A stretch of 64,000 nucleotides of DNA from positions 1 to 64,000 of IMG/VR virus record IMGVR_UViG_3300021365_000005; one strand, written 5' to 3'. Shown here piece after piece: positions 5,312 to 45,661 of this stretch. The notes below the pieces were generated by a model. The model saw nothing but the letters and a program-made list of their open reading frames with translations. It made no database searches and had not been told where the DNA came from. Both the position numbers and the translations under genes were made by a program. The DNA is from a virus. Positions within the stretch are counted from its first letter, which is position 1. Each line of letters opens with the position of its first letter.

Positions 5312-5851
5312 TTAATTTTCCTCATTTAAAAGTTCACGGAAATCAAGTGATGAAAACATTGTGAACTCGTTTGCGAATCTAGTTATTTTTAAATTTGGAA
5401 GTGCTTCATGAAGCTCAGACAATAACTCTTCATATAATAAGACTTCTTTATTTTTAGACGAGTCATCCCAAACGTCTTTTGCCCCACGTTCACGAGGATT
5501 AGTACCATGAATATATATTATTTCAGTCTCATCAAATAATCCTTCGTTAGCAAAAGTCCAGAGCTGTTTAACAGCTTCATCCATAGTTATCCTATTTTCC
5601 ATTACCCCCCAAACTAAAACCGTAAGTATTCCTCGGTCAATATATAGTTTTTTTGTAATGTGCTTATCACGGTTTAAGTGGTGCAGCATTATTTCTTTAC
5701 TAATAGCAAATTGGTGTGTGCCCAAATCATTATTGCTTAACTTAAGTTTTCCATACCAAAAAGGAAATGGAAACTTATAAGTCTTAATGTGTGCTTGCTG
5801 CAGTAAGTAAGTTTTGCCAGTGTTTCTGGCCCCTTCAATCAATTTTAACAT
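5312..5851 (-). CDS. dNMP / thymidylate kinase-like P-loop kinase
   Basis: IEGARNTGKT Walker A and YIDRG motif; size 179 aa. Confidence 0.8.
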   Translation of the reverse strand: MLKLIEGARNTGKTYLLQQAHIKTYKFPFPFWYGKLKLSNNDLGTHQFAISKEIMLHHLNRDKHITKKLYIDRGILTVLVWGVMENRITMDEAVKQLWTFANEGLFDETEIIYIHGTNPRERGAKDVWDDSSKNKEVLLYEELLSELHEALPNLKITRFANEFTMFSSLDFRELLNEEN

Positions 5852-13202: not shown

Positions 13203-13247
13203 CTAATATACGACTTATTTAGTAAAGACTACGATGTTAATCGTTAA
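13203..13247 (-). promoter_or_regulatory. Class B promoter upstream of uvsE
   Basis: Same four blocks and spacing as 2715-2759. Confidence 0.75.
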
Positions 13248-17185: not shown

Positions 17186-18184
17186 TCACAAAGCCAAAGG
17201 TCTCATGGCATCATAATTCTTACCATACTTTGATTTGGTTGGTAGGCCCATCAGGGCTTTTAGTTCGAACAATAGGGATTTGCCATCTTCAGGGGCAACG
17301 TCAAACAAAAATGAATCGTAGGTATATAGAACCAATTTGGTTTTACGATCTTTTAATAGTGCTTGAATTTTTTCCATAACTTCGATATTTTTTTCGGTCT
17401 CATAGGCTTGGATTAAATAATTAAATAATTTCTGAGGAGACATGTCCTCATAATTCTTTTTATAAAACCTTCTACCAAAGATCGGGGTCTCGATGTAGCC
17501 CCTCTCATTATAATTATCCCATAATTCAAAAATATAGGTCTTAGTCTTCTTAAAGTATTCTATGTTCTCAAACTCCTTCGGTATACCTCCATAGAGCACC
17601 CTAAACGAGATCCTTTTCGACTCTTCATATTCCTCATTGGTCAAGTTATTAGTGTCAAAGTACATTTTTCCAAGATGAGAGTGAACTGAGGGTTCTGAGA
17701 ATTCATAGTCGATAAGTCCAGCTATTAACCTTAGGTGGTAGGCATCATAGTCAAACTCAACTAAAACTCCTGAGTCATGTCTACTAATAAACCTTGCCCT
17801 AGACTTGTCGTCTTTGTTTAATGCAGCATAGTTTACCCCATTGTTGGTGTTTGAAGGTCTACCGGTAAGTGTATACAAGTTGTATTTAGAATGTTCTGTG
17901 CCTGTTGTTGTGAATATGCCGTTATCTTCAATTGCTTCAAATAGCGGAGCAATCCTATCTATATATGTTTCTTCACATATTGCCTTAGGCATACCTGCTA
18001 GCACTCTGGAGTTTATTGCTTCCTGCTCTCTGTGCTTGTTTTTTGGTATAATCATATGAACATCATTTCTATTCCAGTACTTATGACTAAAAAATTTAAA
18101 TATTGGTAGCTGAATGGTTTCCAGATCGGTGGCTTTCCCAGTGTTCAGGTAGCTACGAATTGAAATCTGCTTCAGGATATCCAT
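17186..18184 (-). CDS. Stand-alone family A DNA polymerase catalytic domain (no exonuclease domains)
   Basis: TLTGRPS, motif A FDYDAYHLRLIA, motif B SKRISFRVLYGG, NYLIQ, motif C YTYDSFLFD. Confidence 0.85.
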   Translation of the reverse strand: MDILKQISIRSYLNTGKATDLETIQLPIFKFFSHKYWNRNDVHMIIPKNKHREQEAINSRVLAGMPKAICEETYIDRIAPLFEAIEDNGIFTTTGTEHSKYNLYTLTGRPSNTNNGVNYAALNKDDKSRARFISRHDSGVLVEFDYDAYHLRLIAGLIDYEFSEPSVHSHLGKMYFDTNNLTNEEYEESKRISFRVLYGGIPKEFENIEYFKKTKTYIFELWDNYNERGYIETPIFGRRFYKKNYEDMSPQKLFNYLIQAYETEKNIEVMEKIQALLKDRKTKLVLYTYDSFLFDVAPEDGKSLLFELKALMGLPTKSKYGKNYDAMRPLAL

Positions 18185-39630: not shown

Positions 39631-40002
39631 TTATCTCGTAACTTCTGGAGATAACTTTATCGAGCCTTGTAGTAATCTAGTTACTGTTGAAGAAGCAGGA
39701 TCTTCTATTTCAATATCATAAACTGCTGAATCAAATGTGTAGTTCTTTGTAACAGATGCTTCAATTCTAAGCTGTATAGTACCACTAGCTGTGGAATTGG
39801 TAGTAGCTAGTATAGTCATGCCACTTCCAGTTTCAAATGACCCTCCAACCACAGGAGCAGCATCTGTTATAGCATCTCGTATATGCATTCGTACTAAATA
39901 GCCATTTAGATCTACAACATTAGCACTTGAATCTTTATATGTGAATTGCTTTACTACTGTTGTTCCTTGTTCTATGGTAAAATTATAAATGCCGGCTGCC
40001 AT
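39631..40002 (-). CDS. Ig/BppU-like virion adaptor protein
   Basis: YNFTIEQGTT, DLNGY..RMHIR, YDIEI, RLLQG.I.LSPEVTR. Confidence 0.7.
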   Translation of the reverse strand: MAAGIYNFTIEQGTTVVKQFTYKDSSANVVDLNGYLVRMHIRDAITDAAPVVGGSFETGSGMTILATTNSTASGTIQLRIEASVTKNYTFDSAVYDIEIEDPASSTVTRLLQGSIKLSPEVTR

Positions 40003-40034
40003 GTGGGTCTCCTAAACGTGATTGTACTTCCATA

Positions 40035-40044
40035 TATAAATATA
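40035..40044 (-). promoter_or_regulatory. Late-type motif TATATTTATA
   Basis: Recurrent intergenic motif. Confidence 0.55.
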
Positions 40045-40067
40045 CAAAAAAGTACTAAATGAATACA

Positions 40068-40748
40068 CTATAAAACTTTACCAGGTCTATCTTCATAAGC
40101 CTGAAGTATAAGTTTTAGTATTGGGTGTCTGTGATTTTCTAATAACTCGATGGTGTGTAGTCCAGCTACAGTTTTAATTGATTGCAAAAACTTTAACCCA
40201 GACTCTCCTGTAGACTTTAGATCTATTTGATCTGAATCTCCGCAAAACAACATTTTAGATCCTTTACCTATTCTTTGAAGAATCATTAAGGTTTGTTCAT
40301 GGGTCAAGTTTTGGGCCTCATCTACAATTATTACAGAATTTGTAAAAGTACGGCCTCTCATATAAGATACAGGAACTATTTCAATTTGTCTATTACTTAT
40401 CATAGCGTCTATACGCTCGCGCCTAAGTAGCTGATACATGTTTCCATATACAGGTGCTACCCATGGATCCATTTTGTCATCAATACCTCCTGGTAGATAT
40501 CCCAGATCTTCTTTAGATATTGTAGGCCTTGTGATTATTATTTTTTCAACATGTTTATCTAAGGCTAGGTTTAGTGCTATTTGACATGCTAATAAGGTTT
40601 TTCCAGATCCTGCATTTCCTAGTACGATTGACACATCATTTTCTAAGATTATAGACTTTGCTTTTTTTTGCTCTGGGTTTAGAGATAATAAAAACCTATA
40701 TCCTTTTTTATTATTTTTAGGCTTAACTTTTGAAAAACTTGTAGACAT
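40068..40748 (-). CDS. phoH: PhoH-family ATPase
   Basis: GNAGSGKT, TRP, LGYLPG, YMRGRTF, IVDEAQN, GDSDQIDL, HRH. Confidence 0.95.
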   Translation of the reverse strand: MSTSFSKVKPKNNKKGYRFLLSLNPEQKKAKSIILENDVSIVLGNAGSGKTLLACQIALNLALDKHVEKIIITRPTISKEDLGYLPGGIDDKMDPWVAPVYGNMYQLLRRERIDAMISNRQIEIVPVSYMRGRTFTNSVIIVDEAQNLTHEQTLMILQRIGKGSKMLFCGDSDQIDLKSTGESGLKFLQSIKTVAGLHTIELLENHRHPILKLILQAYEDRPGKVL

Positions 40749-40768
40749 TAAGATCTCCTTTTCTTTAC

Positions 40769-40778
40769 TATAAATATC
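40769..40778 (-). promoter_or_regulatory. Late-type motif GATATTTATA upstream of phoH
   Basis: Recurrent motif, just downstream of the capsid-gene terminator. Confidence 0.6.
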
Positions 40779-40784
40779 TCACAC

Positions 40785-40816
40785 AAAAAAAGAGACTCAA
40801 ATTAATGAGCCTCTTT
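40785..40816 (-). terminator. Intrinsic terminator after the major capsid gene
   Basis: AGAGGCTCA-TTAAT-TGAGTCTCT-type stem followed by a T run on the minus strand. Confidence 0.85.
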
Positions 40817-40840
40817 CGTAGAATTATACTAAACTTAAAC

Positions 40841-42349
40841 TTAAAGGATGTTTGAAACTGTTAGCTTAGCGTAGAAGTCTTTACGAACTACTTTCTTAGC
40901 ATAACGTGTCATTACACCTTTACGTGGAGTAAAGTTGTTTGGATCATAAACCAATGGAGTCATGATTAGTGGGATATATGGAGCGTAAACCGCACCTGTT
41001 TCAAGGAATTGATTTCCTCGGAATCCTATAATCATATCTGCAGAGTTCCAATATGGATTCTTGTAAACCTTATAACGGTTTGCAAAGTTTCCAATTTTTT
41101 CTACACCTGCTGCAAATCCATCTGTATTTCCATCTGTATCTACTGCGAAACTAGGAATAGTTTCAAGAACAGTAGCAACATCAGGAGAACAAACGATAAA
41201 GTTTGCACCACCACGCATTGTCGCTCTGTGGATCTTATTAGATAGCTTTTGGATTTCATATCCAATAGTAGCATTGTGTGTACCTAACGTGTAAGCCCAA
41301 GGACCTGAAGACGTTTGATATCCCTTAGCAGAAGCATTTGTTGGATCACCGACCCAAGTGCCGCTAAAGCCAGCAGAAGAGTGTAGCATTTCAAGGATCT
41401 CTAGATCGATTTCCATTGCAATGTACTCAGATAACATTGAAGTTAATTCTGCTTCAGCATCAATTGAGTGATACGCATTTAAATCTTGTGCAAACTCTGG
41501 AGTCCATACAACTTTTAACTTACGTGTCTTAGCAACTAAAGCCTCTGACTCTAGAGAAACCTCTAGTTCTGGAATATTTAGTTGAGCTTCCTCAAGTTCA
41601 TTTCCAACAGTGTGCTGGGCCTCGAAATCACCACGAAGACCAGCTGCAGTAGATACATCACCATTCTGTTCAAGTTGGTGATAGTGTACTGTTACAACGT
41701 CAGTTGCACCAGGCATACCACTGAATGTTACCTCACCGGTTGCTTGATCAAAAGAAGTAGCAGCGTATTCAGTAGATCCTGATACAGCGTATGCTGAAAG
41801 ACCCATGTCTAAATCTGCCTTTGTAAAGCCACCTGCATTAAGCTTGGTTCCCTTAGCAGCTAGAGTAACTGAAGCAGTTGATTGGGGAGCTCGCATAGAG
41901 TAAGCAGAACGACCAGGACCAGGATAAAGACCTTTTGTAAAGTCAGTTGTAGCTGCCTTTCCGTTTGATCCGAATATTGACTGTGTGTTGTCTACTGGGA
42001 ATTTATCATTACCATATTTGAAATCCAACCAGAAAACTAGACCTGAAGGTAAGTTCATTGGTTGTACCGATACGAAATCTTTTGCTGAGATTTCTGCAAA
42101 GATACGTCTTACTAGGGGAAGAGCTACGCCATTCCACTCATCATTAGCTGTTGCAGTGTTGTTTGCCTCAGAGATAAGTTGTTTAGCTTGGTTTTCCAAA
42201 AGAATAGCAGTGTTATGTTTATCATATTCACCACCAAGTCCTTCTAAAAGTCCAGTCTTTTCCCATTTAGTAACGTAGCCTTGTGTTTCATTGCGTTGTG
42301 TCGCAAATGCTGCCTTAGAATCTTGCAGCAAGTTTGAAATATTTGACAT
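40841..42349 (-). CDS. Major capsid protein (gp23-like)
   Basis: LENQA, VQPMNLPSGLVF, AKTRKLK..WTPE.AQDL.AYH.IDAEAEL, YAPYIPL, GVMTRYA. Confidence 0.97.
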   Translation of the reverse strand: MSNISNLLQDSKAAFATQRNETQGYVTKWEKTGLLEGLGGEYDKHNTAILLENQAKQLISEANNTATANDEWNGVALPLVRRIFAEISAKDFVSVQPMNLPSGLVFWLDFKYGNDKFPVDNTQSIFGSNGKAATTDFTKGLYPGPGRSAYSMRAPQSTASVTLAAKGTKLNAGGFTKADLDMGLSAYAVSGSTEYAATSFDQATGEVTFSGMPGATDVVTVHYHQLEQNGDVSTAAGLRGDFEAQHTVGNELEEAQLNIPELEVSLESEALVAKTRKLKVVWTPEFAQDLNAYHSIDAEAELTSMLSEYIAMEIDLEILEMLHSSAGFSGTWVGDPTNASAKGYQTSSGPWAYTLGTHNATIGYEIQKLSNKIHRATMRGGANFIVCSPDVATVLETIPSFAVDTDGNTDGFAAGVEKIGNFANRYKVYKNPYWNSADMIIGFRGNQFLETGAVYAPYIPLIMTPLVYDPNNFTPRKGVMTRYAKKVVRKDFYAKLTVSNIL

Positions 42350-42370
42350 TATTGTCTCCTAAATTTTAAA

Positions 42371-43282
42371 TTAAATTAAACCGGCAAGCTTACGCATGCG
42401 GTCTGAAAAGTTGTTTGATTCTACAATCACCGATTTGTTTGGTGCAGTAGATTTTGTAGATTTTGAAGCTAAGCCTTCAGTCATTGAAGATTTAGTTCCG
42501 CCTTTGCCTACGATTGATTCAGCAAGTGTTGAATAGACCAACTTAACTTCGCGAACTGATGCTGCTCTATCGAACGTTTCAATTACACGTAGCTTTTGTG
42601 ATTCATTCAAGTTATTAGCTCTGAAAAGTTTATTAGAAAATAGTAGCTTAGCATTTAGTAAGTTAACCTCATTGATCTTAGATCTTAGGAACTTAATAGT
42701 AGCATAAGCTTCTTCTAAATCAGATTCACCAACGACTTCTTTATCGTCTTCAGCTTCTTCATCTTCTTCTCTTAGTGCATTAATAACTTCTTCGAGGTCG
42801 AATTCTTCATCGTCCTCTGTTGCATCTTCTGTTACAGGCTCTTCTTCTTCAGCAGCGGCGTCTTCAGCGACAGGGACTTCGTCCTCATCTGTTTCAGTTC
42901 CGGCTTCTAGTTCACGAAGGATAGCTTCTAACTCGAGGTCATCTTCAGATTGTTCACCTTCAGCTTCTGCTGCAACTTCTGCATCATCTTCTTCAGGGGC
43001 CATTTCTGCGTCTTCGTCATACATACCTTCAACCTCTGTATCTTCTTCATCTGCTGTGAGTTCTGCAACGGGATCAGTTTCTTCTTCAGAATCCATTGCC
43101 ATTTCAGCAGTGGGAACTTCTTCTTCTTCTTCGTCTTCGTACTCTTCACGAATTTTAGTAGATAACATAGACTGGAGTTTGGGCGTAAACGCTTCTTCTA
43201 AAGCTAATTTTGCATTTGCAATTGCAGTCTGACGGACTGCCTTAGCATCAGCTATAGCTTCTTTTAATAGGTCTTTTGACAT
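42371..43282 (-). CDS. Prohead core scaffold protein (gp22-like)
   Basis: Very acidic; directly upstream of the capsid gene; many L/I-x-E sites; ends RMRKLAGLI. Confidence 0.85.
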   Translation of the reverse strand: MSKDLLKEAIADAKAVRQTAIANAKLALEEAFTPKLQSMLSTKIREEYEDEEEEEVPTAEMAMDSEEETDPVAELTADEEDTEVEGMYDEDAEMAPEEDDAEVAAEAEGEQSEDDLELEAILRELEAGTETDEDEVPVAEDAAAEEEEPVTEDATEDDEEFDLEEVINALREEDEEAEDDKEVVGESDLEEAYATIKFLRSKINEVNLLNAKLLFSNKLFRANNLNESQKLRVIETFDRAASVREVKLVYSTLAESIVGKGGTKSSMTEGLASKSTKSTAPNKSVIVESNNFSDRMRKLAGLI

Positions 43283-43400
43283 ATTATTCTCCTTATATTA
43301 TAATTAGGAAATAAGACTATTAGGAGTCTCAATAAAATTGTTTTGGATTGCATGTCTTGCCACATATTACGGATGGGGCATTTTTGCATGCTGGTTTCAT
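43283..43400 (-). promoter_or_regulatory. Structured 5' leader of the scaffold-capsid operon
   Basis: Nested stem GCAUG/CAUGC + UGCC/GGCA + CAU/AUG; hairpin GAGACU/AGUCUU; two anti-SD-like YUCCUAAU copies. Confidence 0.5.
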
Positions 43401-43402
43401 AA

Positions 43403-43412
43403 TATAAGTATA
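43403..43412 (-). promoter_or_regulatory. Late-type motif variant TATACTTATA
   Basis: One mismatch to the motif; lies just after the bS21 terminator. Confidence 0.5.
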
Positions 43413-43433
43413 TATGAATTTATAAAAGCCCAC

Positions 43434-43467
43434 AAAAAAAAGACCAAAGACGCTAAATCTTTGATCT
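43434..43467 (-). terminator. Intrinsic terminator after bS21
   Basis: AGATCAAAGA-TTTAGCG-TCTTTGGTCT followed by a T run. Confidence 0.85.
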
Positions 43468-43493
43468 AATTTAAGTTTTATATGAAAATTAAC

Positions 43494-43820
43494 TTACATT
43501 GCTGTGCCGCCGCCTTGGCTGTCTTCTATAATAGCGGTCCAAATATAACCATCTTCTAGTTTTTTCTGGGCTTTCCATCTAAACTGCTCGTTACGACAAG
43601 CTTCGATTCGGGCTCTTCGTTTAACAGAAGTTGGTTTGGTATATGTTCGGCGATTCTTATACTCGTCGATTTTACCAGCTTCTTTTAGATTTTTTTTAAA
43701 ACTTCTTAATGCACCTTCAAGTGCTGCTGAAGAATCGTCTGGCACCCTTACTCCAGTTCCACTTTTATCTAGTGTGAAGTCACTTCTTTTATAGCGCTTA
43801 CGCTTTTTATAATCTTCCAT
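43494..43820 (-). CDS. rpsU: Ribosomal protein bS21 homolog with N- and C-terminal extensions
   Basis: V.V....LEGALRSFKK..KEAG.I.EYK.RR.Y.KP.S.KRR is the bS21 core. Confidence 0.88.
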   Translation of the reverse strand: MEDYKKRKRYKRSDFTLDKSGTGVRVPDDSSAALEGALRSFKKNLKEAGKIDEYKNRRTYTKPTSVKRRARIEACRNEQFRWKAQKKLEDGYIWTAIIEDSQGGGTAM

Positions 43821-43846
43821 GTATACTTTATTAATTATTTACTATG

Positions 43847-43896
43847 TAAATATACAAAAAAATAGTTGATATAAAAAATTTATTTGGGGTTATTTT
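43847..43896 (-). promoter_or_regulatory. Class A promoter for bS21
   Basis: AAAATAACC...ATAAATTTTTTAT...TGTATATTTAC with conserved spacing. Confidence 0.7.
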
Positions 43897-44237
43897 TAAA
43901 TAGACCTAAATTTAGGAGATCCTTTTACCGCTTCGTCTTTACCGGAAGCCGTCATCTGAACTAATAAATACCAATCTTCTTTACCATTAGTTACATAATA
44001 TGCAGCCCAATCTTCTCCAGAAAAATAGACATCAGCGCCAGTTATATAGCTATCATTATCTACACTACCATCTGAAGATTTCTTATCTAATAGAGACTTA
44101 TACTTACTTGGAAAGTCTTTGAACTCCCATCCACTTTTTTTAAGGTCCTTAGCAAATGATGGGAAATCGCTCATTTTTGAGATATCTTTGGGATGTGTAT
44201 CTGATGATTCGTATAGGAGATTTTTTAATTTTATCAT
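43896..44237 (-). CDS. Hypothetical protein with MIKLKNLLYE leader, paralog of 14240..14602
   Basis: Direct alignment by eye. Confidence 0.75.
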   Translation of the reverse strand: MIKLKNLLYESSDTHPKDISKMSDFPSFAKDLKKSGWEFKDFPSKYKSLLDKKSSDGSVDNDSYITGADVYFSGEDWAAYYVTNGKEDWYLLVQMTASGKDEAVKGSPKFRSI

Positions 44238-44527
44238 TATTTTATTTTTTTATTAAGCCACTTAACACAATATGCAATTAATTCTTTTTTGGCTGGTTTA
44301 ATATCAGATGGTTCAGTCAGTGGACCTCTACCCCAAGTAAGCCAAGCTTCTTCAATAAGTGCTAAACCTGCACCTACATCTCCATCCCCATCAATAGTTT
44401 CAACATACTCTTCGTTTATTGGCTCCGATTCCGTTAGAGGATTCCACTTCATTTTCATCAATTTAGATGATGGTAGAGTCCCTAGTGCAGAATTCTCTTT
44501 TAATATGCCTTTTAATTTTATCATCAT
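44237..44527 (-). CDS. Hypothetical protein with MMIKLKGILKE leader (start corrected from 44638)
   Basis: GGAG upstream; ATGA overlap with 44524..44670; leader motif. Confidence 0.7.
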   Translation of the reverse strand: MMIKLKGILKENSALGTLPSSKLMKMKWNPLTESEPINEEYVETIDGDGDVGAGLALIEEAWLTWGRGPLTEPSDIKPAKKELIAYCVKWLNKKIK

Positions 44528-44670
44528 TTTTCTCCGAAATATTTTGATCCTTTTTTGGGTTGCCCTTTTTTTGTAGTTACGTATACTGGGTCGTCGGGTT
44601 CGAATTGGGCTTCTAATTCTACTAGCTTTCGTTTCCATTCCTGTACGCTAAATGTTTTATTTTTACTCAT
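44524..44670 (-). CDS. Small protein (48 aa), not in the ORF track
   Basis: MSKNKTFSVQEWKRKLVELEAQ...; ATGA overlaps on both sides; N-terminus resembles MSRPKKFNIREW of 14240..14602. Confidence 0.65.
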   Translation of the reverse strand: MSKNKTFSVQEWKRKLVELEAQFEPDDPVYVTTKKGQPKKGSKYFGEK

Positions 44671-44927
44671 AGTCCTCTTTCCGAAATGTAGGCATCAATA
44701 TCTTCAGACCAATCATCCAAGTCAAAGTTTTTATACTTTTTAACACCAGACTTTTTAATGTCTTTTGCAAGAGATGTTAGGTATGCTTTTTTTTCATGAG
44801 GAGTTAAGTTTTCCTTAGCTGCTGCTATGTTAGCAAGCATTAGGACATCTTTCGAGGAAAGAGCTTCTCCAAGTAAAATACTAGAAATTTCCTCTCGGAT
44901 TATTTCTTTTAGTCTTTCCTTATTCAT
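44667..44927 (-). CDS. Hypothetical protein with LKEIIREEI leader
   Basis: Coupled ORF in the head module. Confidence 0.65.
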   Translation of the reverse strand: MNKERLKEIIREEISSILLGEALSSKDVLMLANIAAAKENLTPHEKKAYLTSLAKDIKKSGVKKYKNFDLDDWSEDIDAYISERGL

Positions 44928-45661
44928 TATGCCTTGCTCACTGAATCTACGTCAACAGCCATCCAATCATTATTGCCGCCTTTAAAGCCTGCTTTTGCCT
45001 GAACAACTTTCACAGCCTTTTTAATTGCTTCTGCTGGAGTTCTAGCAATTACCTTTGACACACCACCAAAAGCAACGCCATTTACATTTGACTTTGCAAA
45101 CTTAACTTTCCATGTGCCAGAGCCTTCTTTAAGAATAGATCCTAGTTTTGTTGATTCAGTAAATTCTTCTGCATTTTCTTTATCATCCTTATCTACACTT
45201 TTAACTGGGAATTCCTTTCCGTCTACAGTAAACTCGTCTTCGTCATTAGCTATTGCTTTTGCTCTTTCAGCTCCAAATGCATTACCTTCTGAAATCTCAT
45301 AATACTTACCTAGCTTGTGGCCCATGTCTTCATAAACAGACTCAAGTCGCTGTTGAAGTGCGGATAGTTCTCTTGCTGTTTTTTCAAACAACTTAACAGA
45401 AGATGCTACTTCATTCATATCACGCTTAACAGTTACAGAATCAAACCAATCGTCGGTTTCTTGAAGAGCTAGTTGTGTAGCTCCTTCAGACATTTTAACT
45501 ATGGCTTCAACCATTTCTTTAATTTCTTCGGTTCTATAGATTTTAGATCCAAACTCGTTGAATGAAGAAACAGATTTAATAATATCTTGTTTTGCTTCTT
45601 TTGTTAAGTGCCTTGCTAGGCGATCCTTATTATTCTCGTATAGAAGATTTTTTAATTTCAT
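44927..45661 (-). CDS. Head-module protein with MKLKNLLYE leader
   Basis: Coiled-coil core; EGNAF...EFTVDGKEFPV motif; internal KLGSILKE. Confidence 0.7.
   Translation of the reverse strand: MKLKNLLYENNKDRLARHLTKEAKQDIIKSVSSFNEFGSKIYRTEEIKEMVEAIVKMSEGATQLALQETDDWFDSVTVKRDMNEVASSVKLFEKTARELSALQQRLESVYEDMGHKLGKYYEISEGNAFGAERAKAIANDEDEFTVDGKEFPVKSVDKDDKENAEEFTESTKLGSILKEGSGTWKVKFAKSNVNGVAFGGVSKVIARTPAEAIKKAVKVVQAKAGFKGGNNDWMAVDVDSVSKA

Follow-up and report, generated by a model that had tools for sequence, protein, structure and literature searches.

Phage-encoded bS21 and Shine–Dalgarno-led late genes occur together in a marine T4-like phage and its relatives

The first 64,000 nucleotides (64 kb; the window) of the 97,456-bp IMG/VR virus record IMGVR_UViG_3300021365_000005, a contig with an estimated completeness of 56%, belong to a marine phage that its module gene content identifies as a T4-like myovirus. 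Its head module contains a gene for the ribosomal protein bS21 that has no Shine–Dalgarno (SD) sequence of its own, and strong SDs are concentrated on the late virion genes. Our analysis indicates that SD use in this phage and its relatives tracks whether a phage bS21, perhaps of the extended kind, is present. The two do occur together, and the link that we claim is confined to this co-occurrence. The idea is so far unpublished, and our literature searches found no report that bS21-bearing phages carry SDs while bS21-less relatives do not. As an explanation, we propose that the phage bS21, made from a separate, SD-less unit in a presumed Bacteroidota host, could re-tune ribosomes toward SD-led late messages, a reading that we regard as a real possibility but somewhat short of probable.

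The preliminary description of this DNA, made from the letters alone, listed ten starts with AGGAG 5–9 nt ahead of them (42349, 43282, 29466, 27335, 32219, 40748, 40002, 25610, 54303 and 12194), and all ten were found as described. Over the whole contig AGGAG precedes 13 of 108 starts, compared with about 1% of other ATGs, and any SD core of 4–5 nt is present at 38 starts over a background of 8%, leaving 65% of all starts without one. The distribution follows gene class. None of the 17 genes in the early block has any SD core, and their leaders contain 8% G; strong SDs are found at one of 22 genes in the replication block (ssb) and at 19 of 69 in the virion block. The claim that polB and the other named early and replication genes are SD-less is likewise correct, since no SD core was found at any of them. 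A difficulty is ssb, which has a strong SD despite sharing the promoter class of bS21. The scaffold gene is preceded by AAGGAGA (43288..43294, minus strand), 6 nt before its ATG, and the major capsid gene by AGGAG (42356..42360, minus strand) with a spacer of 6.

A rival reading is that these pentamers are not ribosome-binding sites (RBSs): AGGAG could instead belong to the late promoter or the region transcribed first, or act as an RNA stability element. The late motif ATATTTAT is followed within 80 nt by nine of the 13 AGGAG sites (Fisher p = 2e-5), several of which would then begin short leaders at their extreme 5′ end. The late motif (ATATTTATA) occurs 13 times in the window, always on the coding strand, where 2.7 copies are expected, and is common to all five genomes that we compared. 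However, the spacing from AGGAG to ATG is tight (5–9 nt), whereas the distance from the late motif to the ATG of those genes ranges from 15 to 38 nt; the capsid AGGAG, 21 nt past the scaffold stop, has no late motif within 80 nt upstream; and the AGGAG of ssb follows a different promoter class. Because the spacing to the ATG is fixed, the distance to the promoter varies and the capsid gene lacks a late motif, AGGAG is tied to start codons and not to promoters. We therefore rejected it as a promoter element, and any role other than ribosome binding seems very improbable.

Evidence for a link between SDs and bS21 comes from relatives of this phage. We surveyed loci from 80 of roughly 580 IMG/VR capsid relatives, calling bS21 by hidden Markov model and scoring SDs locus by locus; 59 loci were evaluable. 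In 38 of these a bS21 gene is present 1.1–2.6 kb upstream of the capsid gene and the mean strong-SD fraction is 0.32. In the other 21 bS21 is absent, the mean falls to 0.09, and eight loci have no strong core whatever (Mann–Whitney p = 4e-6 for the 59 loci). Ten of the bS21-less records were searched in their entirety and contained no bS21 above the family cut-off. The bS21 genes themselves avoid SDs: a strong core is found at 4 of 36 bS21 starts and at 21 of 36 capsid starts in the same phages (p = 5e-5). Genome-wide counts agree with the survey. The Flavobacterium phage vB_FspM_immuto (immuto) is a useful control because its host is known. No bS21 was found in its genome, its capsid, scaffold and phoH orthologues have A-rich leaders without an SD, and SD cores are below chance, at 3.3% of starts compared with 11% of other ATGs. 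In the bS21-bearing genomes SD cores at starts exceed background throughout: 34.5% versus 8% in this phage, 29.5% versus 3% in the Microcystis phage Mel-JY01, 20% versus 6% in G008 (complete, 157 kb) and 39% versus 8% in G007.

The gene at the center of this association (43494..43820, minus strand) encodes a protein of 108 amino acids (aa), and its assignment as bS21 in the preliminary description is borne out by PF01165, phrog_21469 and phmmer. The PF01165 match (E = 1.3e-10) reaches 41.2 bits where the cut-off is 27, with residues 34–77 aligned to profile positions 10–53 of 55; phmmer also recovers bS21 chains of solved ribosomes with E-values down to 5e-6, and full-length relatives back the start codon. 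The extensions of about 20 aa proposed for both ends measure 23 aa at the N-terminus and 22 aa at the C-terminus. The former, which is basic and aromatic (MEDYKKRKRYKRSDF..., 23 residues), sits before a GVRVP strand that aligns with LIIP of host bS21. For comparison with hosts, we collected host-type bS21 sequences from Flagellimonas, Polaribacter and two Flavobacterium genomes, which were located by probing with a 16S pattern and by searching for the family. In a gap-free alignment with three Flavobacteriaceae bS21s, and also with MAFFT, Arg76 of the phage protein (in EACR) occupies the position of Tyr54 in the Flavobacteriaceae KA[AQS]Y, so that the proposed replacement of KAAY by EACR is now seen against real host sequences. 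Identity to the Flavobacteriaceae proteins is 19–23%.

Exhaustive HMMER searches place the protein in a family of long-form bS21s of about 100–125 aa that have both extensions in common; in their C-terminal part a Trp is invariant, and the extension there follows the pattern W..I.D.G. The Atlas clusters nearest to this family are more than 90% viral. An AlphaFold2 model of the phage protein (mean predicted local distance difference test score 79) has helices at residues 31–48, 50–58 and 63–91, the last and longest of which holds Arg76. Foldseek searches with the model ranked bS21 chains first, four of the top matches being bS21 or bS21m, with a best E-value of 0.34 that is not significant. Searches with tblastn of 50,697 phage records returned no match to the phage bS21, nor to a Tyr-type bS21, and no bS18 or bS6 gene was found in the phage.

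The bS21 gene is organized as a stand-alone unit. It is preceded by a bipartite promoter-like motif, TTTTTAT-N16-TATATT (43849..43877, minus strand), which we refer to as class 2. With spacers of 14–18 nt, this motif occurs six times in the window where 0.22 copies are expected, each time on the coding strand and ahead of a gene; the other five stand before ssb, before a polA-like gene at 18184 and before three genes with starts at 5851, 13598 and 33608. Since copies precede ssb and the polA-like gene, the promoter type of bS21 is that of replication genes. It differs from the late genes' motif and from the four-block motif of the earliest genes (89.5–97.4 kb). A scan for E. coli-type sigma-70 promoters revealed no enrichment (13 found, 14 expected). 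Thus, of the earlier proposal that bS21 has its own host-type ("class A") promoter, the private motif stands and "host-type" is an interpretation; "early" is similarly suggested by promoter class. The leader (43821..43848, minus strand), which reads aataattaataaagtatac ahead of the ATG, is A/T-rich and, as had been described, contains no SD core. The predicted private terminator was also recovered, as an 11-pair stem followed by T8 (43441..43467, minus strand) with a fold z-score of −3.5 that no shuffle equalled in stability (0 of 200).

The same arrangement of T-rich box, TATATT box, SD-less bS21 leader and hairpin terminator is kept in the close relative L130 and in each of L131, L135, L136, L137 and L143, whose bS21s are only 35–40% identical; a hairpin and T-run follow bS21 in these six and in L149. 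The gene is co-oriented with all its neighbors. Separately, the four-block promoter-like motif (TTAACG..TTAACGA, ATCGTAGT, CGTATATTGACTA) occurs at 2715–2759 and 13203–13247 (minus strand) in the window and at 92.8–97.1 kb of the record, ahead of several early genes without SDs and of polB and uvsE; no copy was found in the genomes of immuto, Mel-JY01, G007 or G008.

How could a phage bS21 and SDs be connected? In Bacteroidia, bS21 masks the anti-SD and its gene, rpsU, is autoregulated (Jha 2021, PMC7797042; McNutt 2023, PMC9976891). Tyr54 (KA.Y) of this masking type of bS21 stacks on A1534, and substitution of this residue (Y54A) or deletion of the C-terminus of Flavobacterium johnsoniae bS21 increases SD-dependent translation 3–5 fold (PMC9976891). 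We envision a host from the Bacteroidota with SD-blind ribosomes, in which phage bS21 would be made ahead of the late genes by unmodified ribosomes; on this proposal, the need to be translated by such ribosomes is why the bS21 gene would have no SD. The protein is predicted to replace or out-compete host bS21 on the 30S platform, and the resulting ribosomes would expose or otherwise use the anti-SD and would thereby prefer the late messages that encode abundant virion proteins and are led by SDs. The early timing in this scheme is suggested by promoter class.

The host is probably a member of the Bacteroidota, as suggested by a transfer-messenger RNA (tmRNA) tag that starts with Gly, by the SD-free, G-poor leaders of early genes, whose translation must fall to host ribosomes before any modification, and by the nearest cultured relative, which grows on Flavobacterium. 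No direct host link for the phage was found. The phage tmRNA lies outside the window (record 89473–89819, minus strand; RF04321, 59.5 bits), is of the two-piece (permuted) form and encodes the tag GEQVELAMAA. Tags start with Gly in six of six Bacteroidota genomes and with Ala in four of four others (a cyanobacterium, Sulfurimonas and two Clostridia); unlike the phage's, the tmRNAs of the Bacteroidota genomes examined are one-piece. No tRNA was found in the contig, and no C-terminal domain of the type IX secretion system was found in the phage proteins. The Bacteroidota TTTG/TAnnTTTG promoter pattern is not enriched in the phage, and none of immuto, Mel-JY01, G007 and G008 shares its two early/middle promoter classes; because these classes are unshared and neither the Bacteroidota nor the sigma-70 pattern is enriched, the promoters are uninformative on the host.

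Several findings weigh against our proposal that phage bS21 re-tunes ribosomes. The preliminary description attributed the change to loss of the Tyr, which would free the anti-SD, and this mechanism did not hold up. A sub-clade of relatives (L154, L156, L162, L177, L178, L181 and L207) carries bS21s with the Tyr-type signature KA.Y(I/F), and its phages use strong SDs to the same extent as those with Arg/Lys-type bS21 (0.29 and 0.28). Since the two types are alike, Tyr loss does not track SD use, and we rejected loss of Tyr54 as the switch. Moreover, whereas the F. johnsoniae bS21 (chain 7jil_z) matches the core of the phage protein with E = 0.13, the bS21s of Staphylococcus, Bacillus and E. 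coli are nearer to it, at E = 5e-6 to 1e-4, and the Staphylococcus and Bacillus chains also have Arg or Lys at the Tyr54 position. Arg or Lys is the common state at this position outside Bacteroidia. Because the core is nearer to non-Bacteroidia bS21s, Arg76 may just be the generic state and no special loss.

The phylogeny limits the argument as well. On the capsid tree there are only three gains or losses of bS21, and with three changes the link between bS21 and SDs cannot reach significance by independent contrasts (sign test). There are also exceptions in both directions. L138, L144 and L151 (the last classed as a provirus by IMG/VR) are SD-rich, with strong fractions of 0.27–0.35, and no bS21 was found on their contigs of 59–95 kb; either these are true exceptions or the gene lies in the unsampled part. 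Conversely, L189 and L171/172 carry bS21 yet have almost no SDs. L189 and L171 belong to an SD-poor clade (L165, L171, L175, L188, L189 and L200) in which the bS21 N-terminus is short and host-like and the C-terminal tail is long. SD use is thus lowest in the only clade whose bS21 lacks the N-terminal extension (Spearman 0.36, p = 0.03, the points not being independent), which hints, as a weak lead, that the extension, rather than bS21 as such, goes with SD use. It is more likely that the phage protein as a whole, rather than a single Tyr-to-Arg change, is the determinant, and two candidates within it are the basic N-terminal extension and a diverged first helix, the latter by analogy with the phage bS21s for which Chen et al. 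(2022, ISME Commun 2:31, PMC9723584) report it. Finally, ssb combines the promoter class of bS21 with a strong SD, and in the phages of Chen et al. bS21 transcripts were measured alongside those of late genes.

Some of these observations would be expected if bS21 were a marker of host range. The bS21-bearing phages could infect SD-reading bacteria such as cyanobacteria, with late-gene SDs being ordinary tuning of highly expressed genes, and the bS21-less, SD-less lineages could be ones that moved onto Bacteroidota; phage bS21 would then serve a generic purpose, such as ribosome completeness after host shut-off or a boost to initiation. The kinship of the bS21 core, and its Arg at position 54, with proteins from outside Bacteroidia is consistent with this account, as is the negative outcome of a search for close relatives of the phage bS21 in a collection of genomes from 185,579 species of bacteria and archaea. 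A few host jumps would fit a tree with only three changes of state. Furthermore, Mel-JY01, the other cultured bS21-bearing relative, was deposited as a Microcystis phage, which also counts against our proposal; its bS21 gene occupies the same place in the head module and GGAG stands ahead of the genes for its capsid, scaffold and sheath proteins. SDs can be read by the ribosomes of cyanobacteria. However, a phage adapted to an SD-reading host would not be expected to have early genes devoid of SD cores with G-depleted leaders, nor to lack a core at nearly two-thirds of its starts. The Gly-start tag, found in all the Bacteroidota and in none of the others, cyanobacterium included, points away from such a host, and SDs are abundant too in the sub-clade whose bS21 retains KA.Y(I/F), the Bacteroidia signature. 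The avoidance of SDs by the bS21 genes themselves is left unexplained. We consider host range an unlikely explanation overall.

The Tyr-type relatives and the SD-rich loci without bS21 would fit a different account, in which the host is a member of the Bacteroidota but a shortage of bS21 after host shut-off yields bS21-free, SD-reading ribosomes for the late messages. Phage bS21 would have a role of its own, which could be favoring phage mRNAs via its extensions, restoring ribosomes, countering defense or being packaged in the virion. F. johnsoniae ribosomes without bS21 translate the SD-led rpsU faster, and bS21 depletion also lets ribosomes read SDs, a phage role being only speculated on (McNutt 2023, PMC9976891). 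A Tyr-type phage bS21, which would be expected still to mask the anti-SD, nevertheless co-occurs with SDs, and no bS21 was found in L138, L144 and L151 despite their many SDs. The location of the bS21 gene, among head genes and small proteins with leaders resembling capsid-targeting sequences, is compatible with packaging, and packaging and defense evasion are both raised as possibilities by Chen et al. (PMC9723584). Against this account, SDs have been lost in three bS21-less lineages, among them the cultured Flavobacterium phage, which is unexpected if SD reading needs no phage bS21. Taken together, we judge a bS21 shortage to be quite unlikely as the explanation.

The scaffold–capsid operon has an unusual leader. 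Downstream of the bS21 terminator lies TATACTTATAT (43402..43412, minus strand), a late-promoter variant that heads the operon, followed by a leader of about 120 nt and the scaffold gene. TATACTTATAT is found at the same place in six diverged relatives, and L136 and L149 have TATATTTATAT there. Upstream of the scaffold SD the leader contains a hairpin of seven pairs with the loop CCUAAU (43312..43331, minus strand). In 13 lineages its stem is 100% paired, with two-sided changes at four of the seven pairs; the covariation amounts to 16 cells compared with 0–2 in slid controls, and none of 500 shuffles reached the score. Directly 3′ of the hairpin is UAUUUCC (43307..43313, minus strand), which is invariant in the 13 lineages, and the scaffold SD lies 13–17 nt beyond it. 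The minimum free energy fold (z = −2.5) and the consensus fold both predict pairing between UUUCC and the GGAGA of the SD. Conservation of the two sides means that this pairing offers no covariation to test, and UAUUUCC is best described as a predicted anti-SD-like mask of the scaffold SD. A further, nested hairpin is present upstream in the leader (43283–43412, minus strand). No Rfam family matched in 42090–45221.

The 13 lineages with the hairpin–UAUUUCC–SD arrangement come from three deep branches of the bS21-bearing clade, and all are bS21-bearing or not evaluable for bS21. Neither immuto nor the other lineages without bS21 yielded the element, the one match there (L148) lacking the hairpin. 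The element resembles an operator that controls translation of the head operon, and any relation to bS21 is speculation. The most elaborate form of our proposal is a viral switch, in which phage bS21 would turn SD-blind Bacteroidota ribosomes into SD-reading ones and its extensions would act together with the leader hairpin and UAUUUCC, such that only re-tuned ribosomes would open the head operon and translate it; this we place on the unlikely side. Overlying the scaffold start in antisense is a perfect sigma-70 consensus (TTGACA-17-TATAAT; 43276–43304, plus strand) that is formed by the complement of the SD region. It is probably there by chance, since the stretch is unchanged in the near-identical L130 and different in L131.

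The surroundings of these elements are those of a T4-like phage. The window has a G+C content of 37%, and 108 of the 111 open reading frames called are on the minus strand. Structural genes include those for a Gp23-type capsid protein, T4-type portal and terminase, sheath, tube, head–tail adaptor and prohead protease, and a family B DNA polymerase, ssb, a DnaB-like helicase, ribonucleotide reductase and PhoH are among the other genes. By capsid identity the nearest deposited phages are immuto (49%) and Mel-JY01 (47%), followed by an uncultured 484-kb phage (47%) and Rhodothermus phage RM378 (36%). The head module runs portal, protease, small proteins, bS21, scaffold, capsid. The scaffold-like protein (42371..43282, minus strand; 303 aa) is acidic and has no Pfam or PHROG match, and its place ahead of the capsid gene agrees with immuto and Mel-JY01. 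It is followed by the T4-type major capsid gene of the Gp23 family (40841..42349, minus strand; PF07068, E = 2e-77) and a terminator with a 12-pair stem and T-run (40788..40817, minus strand). Next comes a PhoH-like ATPase (40068..40748, minus strand; PF02562, E = 1e-60) with ATATTTATA at 40769..40777 (minus strand) and AGGAG at 40755–40759, and then a 123-aa phage protein (39631..40002, minus strand; phrog_1084) with a late motif at 40035–40043 and AGGAG at 40009–40013. Several of the small proteins encoded between the prohead protease and bS21 genes (43896–45661, minus strand) start with or contain one common short leader, in the variants MIKLKNLLYE, MMIKLKGILKE and MKLKNLLYE, and their remainders are unrelated to each other. 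These leaders are reminiscent of the capsid-targeting sequences of T4 internal proteins.

No ribosomal protein is encoded by phages more often than bS21. If the switch reading is true, bS21 would have a defined job there, and this would be the first known virus to change the start-site rule of its host's ribosome. A causal link between bS21 and SDs would represent a simple viral route to a private class of ribosome and could provide a tool for orthogonal translation in Bacteroidota. Should the association reflect host range only, the bS21/SD pair would still be useful as a marker for predicting phage–host relationships.

The closest precedent for the gene's location is the work of Chen et al. 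(PMC9723584) on freshwater Bacteroidetes myophages, in which bS21 is similarly found in the head module among terminase, portal, protease and capsid genes and is likewise diverged at its C-terminus. At position 54 all of those bS21s keep an aromatic residue, Tyr or another, where this phage has Arg76; their genes are on the reverse strand and transcribed with late genes, whereas here the gene is co-oriented and has its own replication-class promoter and terminator. The role proposed by Chen et al. is that phage bS21 substitutes for host bS21 and favors phage mRNAs. The words RBS and UTR (untranslated region) are absent from that paper, and the three mentions of Shine–Dalgarno inspected in it do not concern phage genes, which suggests that SD use by phage genes was not examined there. 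A connection between phage bS21 and host autoregulation has been a matter of speculation only in the literature, and two 2026 papers that continue the F. johnsoniae work make no mention of phages.

Among the relatives compared here, immuto (NC_055915) and Mel-JY01 (PP395634) share with this phage the T4-like capsid clade, the head-module order and the late motif; unlike this phage, immuto combines the lack of a bS21 with SD cores below chance, and the bS21 of Mel-JY01 is short (75 aa), lies inside the head operon and lacks an extended C-terminus, its SD cores being mostly of 4 nt. Other phage bS21s offer precedents for action on the ribosome. That of pelagiphage HTVC008M enters E. coli ribosomes (Mizuno et al. 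2019, as cited in PMC9976891). The rpS21 of huge phages has a basic, aromatic-containing N-terminal extension like the one described here, and was suggested to bind ribosomes competitively and to initiate preferentially on phage mRNAs (Al-Shayeb et al. 2020, PMC7162821). The present long-form subfamily differs from both in its conserved C-terminal extension with an invariant Trp. By comparison with Bacteroidia hosts, the phage protein belongs to the same family and the same site on the 30S platform would be its target; host bS21, however, has Tyr54 and no such extensions where the phage protein has Arg76 and extensions of 23 and 22 aa. The genes differ as well: host rpsU has an extended SD of the GAGGAGG type (AAGGAGGTT, GAGGAGGTG and GGGAGGTG in the Flavobacteriaceae genomes L125, L126 and L129), in agreement with the literature on F. 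johnsoniae, and the phage bS21 gene begins without one.

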